Assembly: GCA_977020255.1 (NCBI GenBank)
Contig: CDROCS010000007.1
Span: forward strand, 62,001-126,000
Source of the DNA: Obrimoposthia wandeli
Lineage: Eukaryota
Length of the DNA stretch: 64,000 nucleotides
Reading direction: 5' to 3'
The notes under the pieces are model-generated. The model was not told the DNA's origin. It saw nothing but the letters and a program-made list of their open reading frames with translations, and ran no database searches. Of the stretch, positions 51,704-54,626 are shown one piece after another; the stretch's first letter is position 1; each line of letters begins with the position of its first letter. The position numbers were made by a program, and so were the translations under genes.

Positions 51704-52560
51704 CTATAGTACACATGATTTCTGAGGGTTAAATTCATATTTATGTCACTTTATACTATAATATGTCTGTTTTTAGTAGATTTTACTCAAAAATTAGATG
51801 TTTTTGTTTAAACACATCAATTTTTGTGCCCGCAAATTTCAAATAAATACTATAATACCTCATTTTTCTAAGGTCAATGTGAAAAGTAGGTCACATTTTG
51901 TTATAGTACACATGATTTTTGAGGATCAAATTCATAATTAGTTCACTTTATACTATAGAACCTCTGTTTTAGGCTGATTTATCTCTAAATTTATATGTTT
52001 TGGTTTAAACACATCAATTTTATACGGCGAAGGTCGATTTTTGAGTGTCAAATTCGTGAACAACTCTAAATTTATATGTTTTGGTTTAAACACATCAATT
52101 TTTATGCGCGCAAATTTAAAAACATACTATAACACGTATATATTTTCAAGATAACTATTAATGAAGGTCACATTTTGTTATAGTACACATGACTTTAAGG
52201 GTTAAATTCATAAGTAGATCATTATGTGTTGTATTACGTCTGTTTTACTCTAAATGTATATGTTTTTGTTTAAACACATCAAATTTTATCCACGCAAATT
52301 TATAAATATACTATAATACGAATATTTTAAAATCATTTTCAGATGTGTGTCTTTTGAATCACTTCACCCCATCCCTCCATATTTCACACAAAGTGAGATG
52401 TATTCGTATGTTAGAAAGATTTTATTAATATCAAAAAGACAAATCAAAATATGTAATAATATAGACATAAATCAACAGATGAAGAATATAATAAAAATAT
52501 GATACAAATACGATAAAAATATACAATAAATAATCATTCATTCGTAATATACTCATCCGG
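51704..52560 (+). repeat. Remainder of the extended left inverted arm of the mini-Polinton
   Basis: ~196-bp subrepeats, then 52339-52560, which is the reverse complement of 53723-53943. Confidence 0.85.
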
Positions 52561-53746
52561 TTGGAGATTTTACCTGGGTAACTGACCGATTGGAATTAGA
52601 AATAATAATTCATGAGCTCTCATATAAGGATCTAAGCTGTAGTGATTATGCTCATTTAATGGAAGTAGATATAAGTATTCCGAATGAATTGCATGATAAA
52701 CTTGACGATCTTCCCTTAGCTCCACGTAAGGATTGCCCGCCTGGAAGTCGTACTTCTAAATTACTTTAACTCATTATCCGAAGAAGCATTACATTGTCCA
52801 TTCTCGTTTGCTTCAAATGTATCTGAGGCTTGGGGCTAAAATAGATTTCTTGCATAGAGCAATTTGGTTTGCACAAACCAATGTTTTTTCAAAGTATATA
52901 GAAGACAAAAAGGCTGCTGCTACTAATGATTTTGAACGAGATTATTATAAGCTGAAAGTTAATTCGCTATTCGGAAAATTGATTGAGAATTTGAAAAAGC
53001 GAATTAATTTAAGGATTTGTAATACGTCTCAAAAACTTGTTACTTATTGTAGTAAGGCACAATTTCAACGCACGATAGAAATAGATTCTGATCTAATAGC
53101 TGTTTTACTGAATAAAGACATGATTTGTTTGGATAGGCATAGCTATATAGGGCAGGCAGTACTAGATCTTAGCAAATTGCGAATGTATGAGCTCCAGTAC
53201 GTGCAACTTAAGAAATATCGTCGGGAATTTAGTTGTGATATTAGAATTGTTGCTGGGGATACTGACAGTTTCTTCTTGAAATGTAGAAATGTGGATGTAG
53301 AAGCACAATTGCTACCAGCAATGGTTTCTGATGGATTATTAGATACATCTAAGTATCCTAAAAATCACCCTCTTTATTCAACAGCTAACACTGCGATAGG
53401 AAAGTTTAAGGATGAAAAAGGGTATTTGTACTTATACGGAATGTATATTTCTTCGTCCAAAATGTTATAGCCTAAAAACTATCACTGATAAATCACATAT
53501 GAGAGCAAAGGGAATTAATCTTAAACAGAGTAATTTAAAACACGATAATTACTTAGCTGTTTATGAGACAGGTATAAGTGAGCGTGTTCAACAAAGTCGT
53601 ATAACTTCCGTTAATCATCAGCCATATACTATGCATTTATCTAAAATAGCATTGTGTAATGCGGATGATAAGCGAAATGGGTTTAAAAGAATCGGTCAGT
53701 CGCATATGGTCATTATCTTCATCCGGATGAGTATATTACGAATGAA
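52556..53746 (+). pseudogene. polB: Protein-primed family B DNA polymerase (Polinton/Maverick type), 3' portion
   Basis: PVGDFTW, MEVDISIPNELHD, YYKLKVNSLFGK, YIGQAVLDLSK, GDTDS, IGKFKDE, LRPKCYS, AKGI, DDKR, AYGHY; several frameshifts. Confidence 0.92.
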
Positions 53747-54626
53747 TGATTATTTATTGTATATTTTTATCGTATTTGTATCATATTTTTATTATATTCT
53801 TCGTCTGTTGATTTATGTCTTTATTATTACATATTTTGATTTGTCTTTTTGATATTAATTAAATGTTTCTAACATAAGAATACATCTCACTTTGTGTGAA
53901 ATATGGAGGGAAGGGGTGAGTGATTCAAAAGACACACATCTGATAATGATCTTGAAAATAGTCGTATTATAGTATGTTTTTAAATTTGCATGGATAAAAT
54001 TTGATGTGTTTAAACAAAAAACATATACATTTAGAGTAAAACAGACCTAATACAACACATAATGACCTACTTATGAATTTAACCCTTAAAGTCATGTGTA
54101 CTATAACAAAATGTGACCTTCATTAATAATTATCTTGAAAAAATATACGTATTATAGTATGTTTTTAAATTTGCGCGCATACAATTTGATGTGTTTAAAC
54201 AAAAACATATACATTAAGAGTAAAATCACCTAAAAACAGACGTATTATAGTATAAAGTGATATAAATATGAATTTAACCCACAAAATCATGTGTACTATA
54301 ACAAAATGTGACCTTCATTAATAATTATCTTGAAAAAATATGCGTGTTATAGTATGTTTTTTAAATTTGCGTGCACAAAATTTGATGTGTTTAAACAAAA
54401 ACATAAACATTTAGAGTAAAATCACCTAAAAACAGACGTATTATAGTATAAAGTGATATAAATATGAATTTAACCCTCAAAATCATGTGTACTATAGCAA
54501 AATTTGACCTACTTTTCATATTGACCTTACAAAAAAAGATGTATTATAGTATGTTTTTGAAATTTGCGCTAAATTTTTTTTCGGTTTTCGCTAGGGGGTG
54601 GCCGGATCTGGACACATCTATTTATT
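53723..54626 (-). repeat. Right TIR of the mini-Polinton
   Basis: Three ~196-bp subrepeats (catgtgtacta at 54093, 54288, 54484) and the terminal motif followed by TACATA. Confidence 0.88.

Follow-up and report, generated by a model that had tools for sequence, protein, structure and literature searches.

A mirror-ended mobile element, with the same end on both sides, is identified here in a 64,000-nucleotide stretch of Obrimoposthia wandeli DNA (contig CDROCS010000007.1, positions 62,001 to 126,000; hereafter the window). It is a non-autonomous Polinton derivative in which the polB-side 'A' end stands on both sides, flanked by a 6-bp target-site duplication (TSD). The element is real, decayed and single-copy, and it belongs to a large set of Polinton derivatives with mirror ends. 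A fold-back before integration, whether as a primary switch or as a palindrome trimmed later, is very likely. The element itself probably stems from a replicating copy that folded back at a short match and would then have been inserted by an integrase acting in trans, and the balance of the evidence favours the CCGG at its junction as the primary switch. The weight of the finding lies in the family pattern, the window copy alone being a decayed example.

The features that place the element among the Polintons are AGT-type inverted termini at 32105 (AGTAGATAGATG) and 54626 (with two substitutions), a 6-bp TSD (TACATA at 32099 and 54627) and a protein-primed family-B polymerase, the last recognised through 97%-identical copies of the window fragment. 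Integrase, ATPase, protease and capsid genes are absent from the window element, which is therefore not an autonomous Polinton. Its layout is that of a copy-back product, with the same end twice, a central loop and a complementary arm that reaches into polB codons (Table 1). In the self-comparison of the window 52063-52560 pairs with 54221-53723 (95.0%) and, further out, 51704-52021 pairs with 54497-54183 (85%). The left arm is broken by ~19 kb of other DNA, with no clean TSD seen at either edge of this insert, and by 41 bp, and the number of 195-bp repeat units differs between the left and right arms.

Table 1. Features of the mirror-ended element (window positions) and positions of two F-A units elsewhere in the genome.
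Feature	Position	Strand	Remark
Left TSD copy, TACATA	32099..32104	+	second copy of the left end's TSD at 14500-14505 (tandem duplication)
True left end: 5'-AGTAG terminus and about three 195-bp repeat units	32105..32724	+	duplicated at 14506-15130
About 19 kb of unrelated DNA inside the left arm	32725..51703	.	Gypsy-like ORFs (by eye), tandem arrays, other inverted-repeat elements
Further left-arm repeat units, non-terminal	51704..52021	+	85% to right arm
41 bp foreign to the arm	52022..52062	.	
Inner left arm: inverted copy of 53723-54221, with last 8 polB codons and stop	52063..52560	-	95.0% identity
Fold-back junction, 4-bp microhomology CCGG	52557..52560	.	
3' polB fragment	52557..53749	+	
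Unpaired loop, 1162 bp	52561..53722	+	
Right arm: polB stop, A+T-rich spacer, 195-bp tandem repeats (54072-54569), degenerate AGTAG-type terminus	53723..54626	+	
Right TSD copy, TACATA	54627..54632	+	
F-A unit (L239)	G000:C1494:69954-76995		
F-A unit (L227)	C334:116821-123641		

The sequence-only reading had set the outer termini, with the TSD TACATA, at 51704 and 54626. The TSD is real, but it belongs to 32105 and 54626: at 51704 there is neither a terminus nor TACATA, and the left terminus, with TACATA directly before it, lies at 32105 and is repeated at 14506 within a tandem duplication of ~17.7 kb. The family terminus consensus is 5'-AGTAG(A/G)..AGATGTGTCC. The left-end piece at 32105 finds its best match in the window's own right arm (721 bits, against at most 669 bits for the other loci compared), so 32105 is taken as the mate of 54626 and the TSD as genuine. 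TACATA at 47940 was rejected as the left TSD, there being no terminus after it. On the right, the junction of terminus and flank was recovered in one short-read contig (54597-54756) with zero differences. The same reading took the TSD to show that a finished product had been integrated; the duplication is present, but a TSD alone is no proof of a fold-back before insertion, and the argument for that order of events rests instead on relatives with unlike ends. Several other features of the window were recorded. Two tandemly duplicated segments (4945-19703 and 22624-37349) are 98.4% identical and include the Polinton left end and Gypsy-like ORFs; they could be a real duplication or an assembly duplicate. 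Two interleaved inverted-repeat pairs (47054-51050 and 48392-51703; 72% and 79%) surround 47-bp and 57-bp tandem arrays, 60502-60933 holds an F-type Polinton terminus with short AGGTCATGACC repeats after it, and ORFs for a RING finger (46211-46786) and for intronless-looking BIR and RING (IAP-like) products (62593-63615) are also present.

Self-comparison confirmed that the inverted arms enclose 1162 bp of 3' pPolB, and the inclusion of the last polB codons in the arm also held, since the last 8 codons and the stop (53723-53749) could be placed from the sequence and from where the ORF stops in another copy. The loop represents the 3' part of a family-B polymerase: its Pfam DNA_pol_B_2 match is weak and below the cut-off, at least 39 other copies in the genome share 97% identity with it and run on upstream through ...TTA CCG GTT GGA, and the upstream ORF of one such copy matches PF03175 at 8.6e-12. 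The proposed switch at a shared CCGG was likewise borne out, parent copies reading ...TTTTTA CCG GTT GGA (L-P-V-G) and the window ...ACTCAT CCGG TTGGAG, with the second CCGG at 53723, 8 codons ahead of the polB stop. The CCGG lies within a 35-bp imperfect inverted match (52557-52591 against 53690-53726) that is unexceptional in a BLAST self-comparison of polB, and another element (G000:C4824) independently used the same register of the 35-bp match, its switch lying 30 bp away where 11 bp match.

Further insertions with the same junction, which the sequence-only reading had proposed looking for, did not emerge from the 1.35-Gb assembly, in which the exact window junction occurs once. A MITE-like amplified deletion derivative was rejected because many copies of one structure would then be expected. 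In four sets of short-read contigs from one sample the arms and polB are deeply covered and single-copy depth is only ~4-6; no contig among the matches listed bridges the CCGG junction, depth falls to zero at 52546-52551 in three runs, the contig of the fourth run goes on as ordinary arm, and coverage of the unique right flank is itself very thin in two of the four runs. The structure is therefore single-copy and unbridged, and at this depth the missing bridge is no evidence either way. An artefact of assembly or amplification, through read fold-back or a phi29 chimera, would be in keeping with a junction that four contig sets leave unbridged, but it can practically be dismissed: the two arms are 5% divergent and also differ by indels, a direct 6-bp duplication is present at the termini, the left arm is split by other DNA and the right flank junction is present in a short-read contig.

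The motif at the polB stop has 740 matches in the assembly and, among the first 100 listed, neighbours no more than 20 kb apart form 10 outward-facing pairs, 4 same-direction pairs and no inward-facing pair. The elements examined comprised the motif pairs and 40 consecutive unpaired motif matches. In a census of the first 59 matches (52 elements) the A end is carried twice in 17 elements, namely 7 motif pairs, C188 and 9 of the 40 singles, or in 16 of 51 without the window element; two further singles contain a fold-back with no second terminus within 10 kb. Support for copy-back is therefore stronger than one locus allows. These A-A elements span 2-18 kb and include a near-perfect snap-back (C398) and, at the upper end, palindromes with two whole polB copies (C92, C135, C988 and C972). 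A 6-bp TSD flanks 14 of the 18 A-A elements in which both termini are present, 10 of the duplications being perfect and 4 having one mismatch; C465, C988, C188 and C285 are without one. In C988 (L065-L066) and C188 (L078) the palindrome goes on beyond the termini for 14-28 bp of inverted flank, an indication of chromosomal events, and C465 (G000:C465:382964-386118), a palindrome whose 3.2-kb loop contains a Rep-like ORF (Gemini_AL1_M, E 0.0034, below the cut-off), is flanked by a direct duplication of ~30 bp rather than 6 bp. A motif for the A terminus has 608 matches in the assembly, and its listing alone gave two further observations, six A termini in tandem ~67 bp apart (G000:C1147:806838-807199) and a 386-bp A-A mini-element (C151:109959-110344). 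In most copies polB is divided at one same place into ORFs of ~790 and 486 codons (e.g. L066:3266-7117), which suggests a short intron, and the repeats upstream of polB may be leader exons.

The short arms of the A-A elements measure from ~340 bp to ~5.9 kb and, with snap-backs and two-polB palindromes among them, a single natural TIR length is insufficient to account for the set. This bears on the possibility that a parent naturally has long TIRs reaching into the 3' end of polB, the window element being an ordinary internal deletion derivative of it. Such an origin has been largely refuted already and must be considered very improbable: no intact A-A parent was found among the copies examined, the short-arm lengths have no common boundary, and the one 14.5-kb A-A candidate (C972) has two outward polB starts. 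Yet some full-length B copies do have TIRs that run ~540 bp into polB, and in C301, a copy with integrase and ATPase, the left A arm extends ~195 bp into polB, although the core genes of C301 are those of another family that has other termini. Family B TIRs (L185-L202) range from ~435 to 1260 bp among full-length copies, with a common boundary ~540 bp inside polB in 3 of 9 copies at different insertion sites, and the E-family copy C4902 (G000:C4902, L215-L216) is a copy-back with 1957-bp arms. Since the B and E families also have arms extended into polB, arm extension from the polB end is a general feature of the genome, and one extended form has spread within family B.

The search for an autonomous parent with a shorter left TIR brought to light no intact A-A element among the family copies examined, which are part of the family, so that a rare parent could be missed; the A end was found paired with the ends of other families instead. 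The candidates considered were C301 (core genes of family C, other termini), C64 (core of family B), C42 (a minor-capsid-like piece of family E), C2208 (left end of family D) and C972 (a palindrome), all of which were rejected, and a Pox_A32 family search gave three weak matches, all to other families. Integrase-bearing families B, C, D and E do exist, each core having at least 40 matches, and share the 5'-AGTAG terminus with the A family. The sister families hold integrase, ATPase, protease and capsid-like ORFs in ~13 kb (the capsid ORFs named by eye, without a Pfam match), and one B copy matches Pfam rve (integrase) and Pox_A32 (ATPase). At many loci, Polinton families were seen inserted into one another.

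Multi-locus relatives join the A end to different ends, in B-A, D-A/A-D and F-A forms, and these unlike pairings make simple deletion from a natural long-TIR parent unlikely. A B terminus accompanies 16 of 20 capsid-gene matches, both ends and the TSD having been checked in 2; TSDs flank 2 of 3 D-A/A-D elements and both F-A elements, and the duplications are perfect in 6 of the 7 chimeras with both ends examined. Perfect TSDs also flank a multi-copy 13-kb B-A element (L061-L063, G000:C906:378984-391966; C2481, L073-L075/L099; L102-L121) with two polB genes, 73% identical, set head to head around capsid-like and protease ORFs; the two parts join where the capsid-like ORF starts, and neither integrase nor ATPase was seen in this element. 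The 7-kb F-A unit (Table 1) contains polB only, between a 267-bp fold-back F end (a perfect internal palindrome) and an A end, again with perfect TSDs. Furthermore, two A-A elements flanked by TSDs, C3973 and C5717, have interiors of the D and F types (the middle of C3973 as judged from search matches), and they provide the main argument for formation before insertion, because an unlike terminus would be hard to replace in place while the TSD is kept.

The alternative to which these relatives speak most directly is host repair, in which a break in an integrated A-A copy was mended from the opposite arm, the TSD being kept, in the manner of Galileo TIR recruitment. Such recruitment is described for Galileo and stated there to have been reported for Polintons (PMC3573991, in the part available), and rare variants common to both arms, singleton junctions and two elements with inverted host flanks are all in its favour. 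It is nevertheless distinctly improbable, given that the ends of the relatives are unlike and that the copies examined include no intact A-A parent; moreover, the longest Galileo TIR is 1260 bp and chimeric Galileo copies are without TSDs (same part of PMC3573991), whereas all but one of the seven chimeras here have them.

Twenty fold-back junctions were tried, of which 10 were clean; 6 with inserted bases and 4 anchor failures were excluded from the microhomology count. Overlaps at the clean junctions are 4, 11, 2, 2, 3, 0, 0, 2, 11 and 2 nt, so that microhomology of at least 2 nt is present at 8 of 10 (P ~6e-5 against random joins in the same sequence), a result equally compatible with the element polymerase, host repair by end-joining or later deletion. 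All six A-A junctions tested genome-wide are single-locus, and no A-A product is therefore shown to have multiplied after forming, which is also what in-place rearrangement predicts; junctions common to several loci were seen only in the B-A chimeras and the extended-TIR B copies. The same deletion is mirrored on both arms of C49 and of C135, that of C135 being unique to it. Rare variants common to both arms, scored over 136 copies, number 11 in C246 (against 3 and 1 private) and 15 in C188 (against 8 and 3), a pattern consistent with an aged template or with subsequent conversion between the arms; this analysis does not separate pre-integration from in-place duplication.

For the window junction itself the main rival is later deletion. 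It would begin with the insertion of a long A-A palindrome of ~12-14 kb with two polB genes, whose unstable centre was subsequently lost from the chromosome at the CCGG; the fold-back would then be real but older and elsewhere, and the window junction a host deletion. Loss of the centre of long chromosomal palindromes is a known process, TSD-flanked long palindromes exist here (C92, C135), the tested junctions are without exception single-locus, and the 35-bp inverted match turns into a direct repeat inside a palindrome. Even so, this course of events is rather unlikely: its precursor still requires a fold-back before integration, one asymmetric loss of ~9 kb is needed, and the long palindromes have differing centres and private variants, which means that fold-back recurs and that short products are to be expected too. 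The CCGG is indeed shared, as the claim of a copy-back at this site had it, but a deletion within a longer palindrome would leave the same sequence as an original switch. Template switching as the origin of the element, also put forward in the sequence-only reading, gains from the 17 A-A elements, their many junctions and mostly 6-bp TSDs and the lack of an intact A-A parent among the copies examined, and is weakened in that the window junction was never amplified.

Under the preferred reading, a fold-back that preceded integration, protein-primed strand-displacement synthesis would begin at the A end and displace a strand. The 3' end of the nascent or displaced strand could then find a short inverted match in its own complement, re-prime there and copy back to the same A end, giving a product with two origins and two integrase sites, which would have been integrated once, in trans, by the integrase of an intact sister family and would then have decayed. 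The 267-bp F hairpin was considered as the primer of the long palindromes and found unsupported, an F terminus being present in the centre of C988 and not in C92, C135, C76 or C88. A broader proposal, advanced tentatively and with somewhat less conviction than the origin of the window element, is that the genome might preserve, in fossil form, a swarm of defective genomes of a protein-primed DNA virus-like element. Copy-back and snap-back Polintons, of the order of 100-200 in number (extrapolated from 17 of 52), together with inter-family chimeras with two polymerases and unlike ends, would all have been made extrachromosomally by strand displacement and integrated in trans via the shared 5'-AGTAG end.

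Copy-back products are an expected by-product of protein-primed strand displacement, and to our knowledge Polinton replication is inferred and has never been demonstrated. Many dated, TSD-flanked copy-backs in one genome would make the replication model testable from sequence and from free host DNA and, if true, the swarm would be direct genomic evidence of the Polinton replication mode and of DI-like parasites on Polintons. The unlike-ended, TSD-flanked elements suggest that little beyond the terminal AGTAG is required by the integrase and that it works across families, a property that would account for the module swapping in this genome. As regards annotation, copy-back may be the source of long 'TIRs' and double polB genes listed in Polinton catalogues, which would then not be natural genome ends.

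Symmetric one-ended products of protein-primed linear DNA are known from adenovirus, as incomplete genomes with extended inverted ends, and from phi29, as palindromic mini-replicons; they arise in culture or in vitro, with no integration. The adenovirus incomplete genomes were reportedly described by Daniell and Mullenbach in 1978. The elements reported here would resemble these in deriving from protein-primed linear DNA and differ in being integrated. Expansion of the inverted repeats of Polintons was probably reported by Jurka et al. in 2007. In the available part of the Galileo paper (PMC3573991), earlier reports of such expansion are cited. TIR expansion is thus, as cited, already known in Polintons, and a copy-back swarm was not found in the literature searched, although an earlier mention in the founding Polinton papers, supplements or Repbase is possible.

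The resemblance to Polintons/Mavericks lies in the AGT-type terminus, the 6-bp TSD and pPolB (PMC8097293 and, for adintoviruses, PMC8502044, both in the sections accessible), and in the integrase, ATPase, protease and capsid-like ORFs of the sister families. The difference is that the window copy keeps only a broken 3' piece of polB and that both its ends are polB-side. Intact vertebrate Polintons have TIRs of 46-1447 bp in the portion of PMC8097293 available, against arms of up to ~6 kb here with the whole of polB duplicated. No copy-back forms are described in the accessible parts of PMC8097293, PMC8502044, PMC12721341 and bioRxiv 10.64898/2026.07.28.741278. With copy-back and snap-back defective viral genomes the elements share a genome end that occurs twice to form a looped panhandle, break and rejoin points spread over a spectrum, near-perfect snap-backs and the loss of essential genes (PMC13506859, as far as its text was available). 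The same portion of that source places such genomes mainly in negative-sense RNA viruses, whereas the elements here are DNA, integrated and fossilised, and would have depended on a helper. Among transposons, the nearest precedent is TIR recruitment in Galileo, which likewise has internally repetitive long TIRs, interior sequence recruited in inverted orientation and ends from different subfamilies; Galileo differs as a cut-and-paste element of the P superfamily, with short recruited tracts, host recombination and chimeras without TSDs (both from the available part of PMC3573991).
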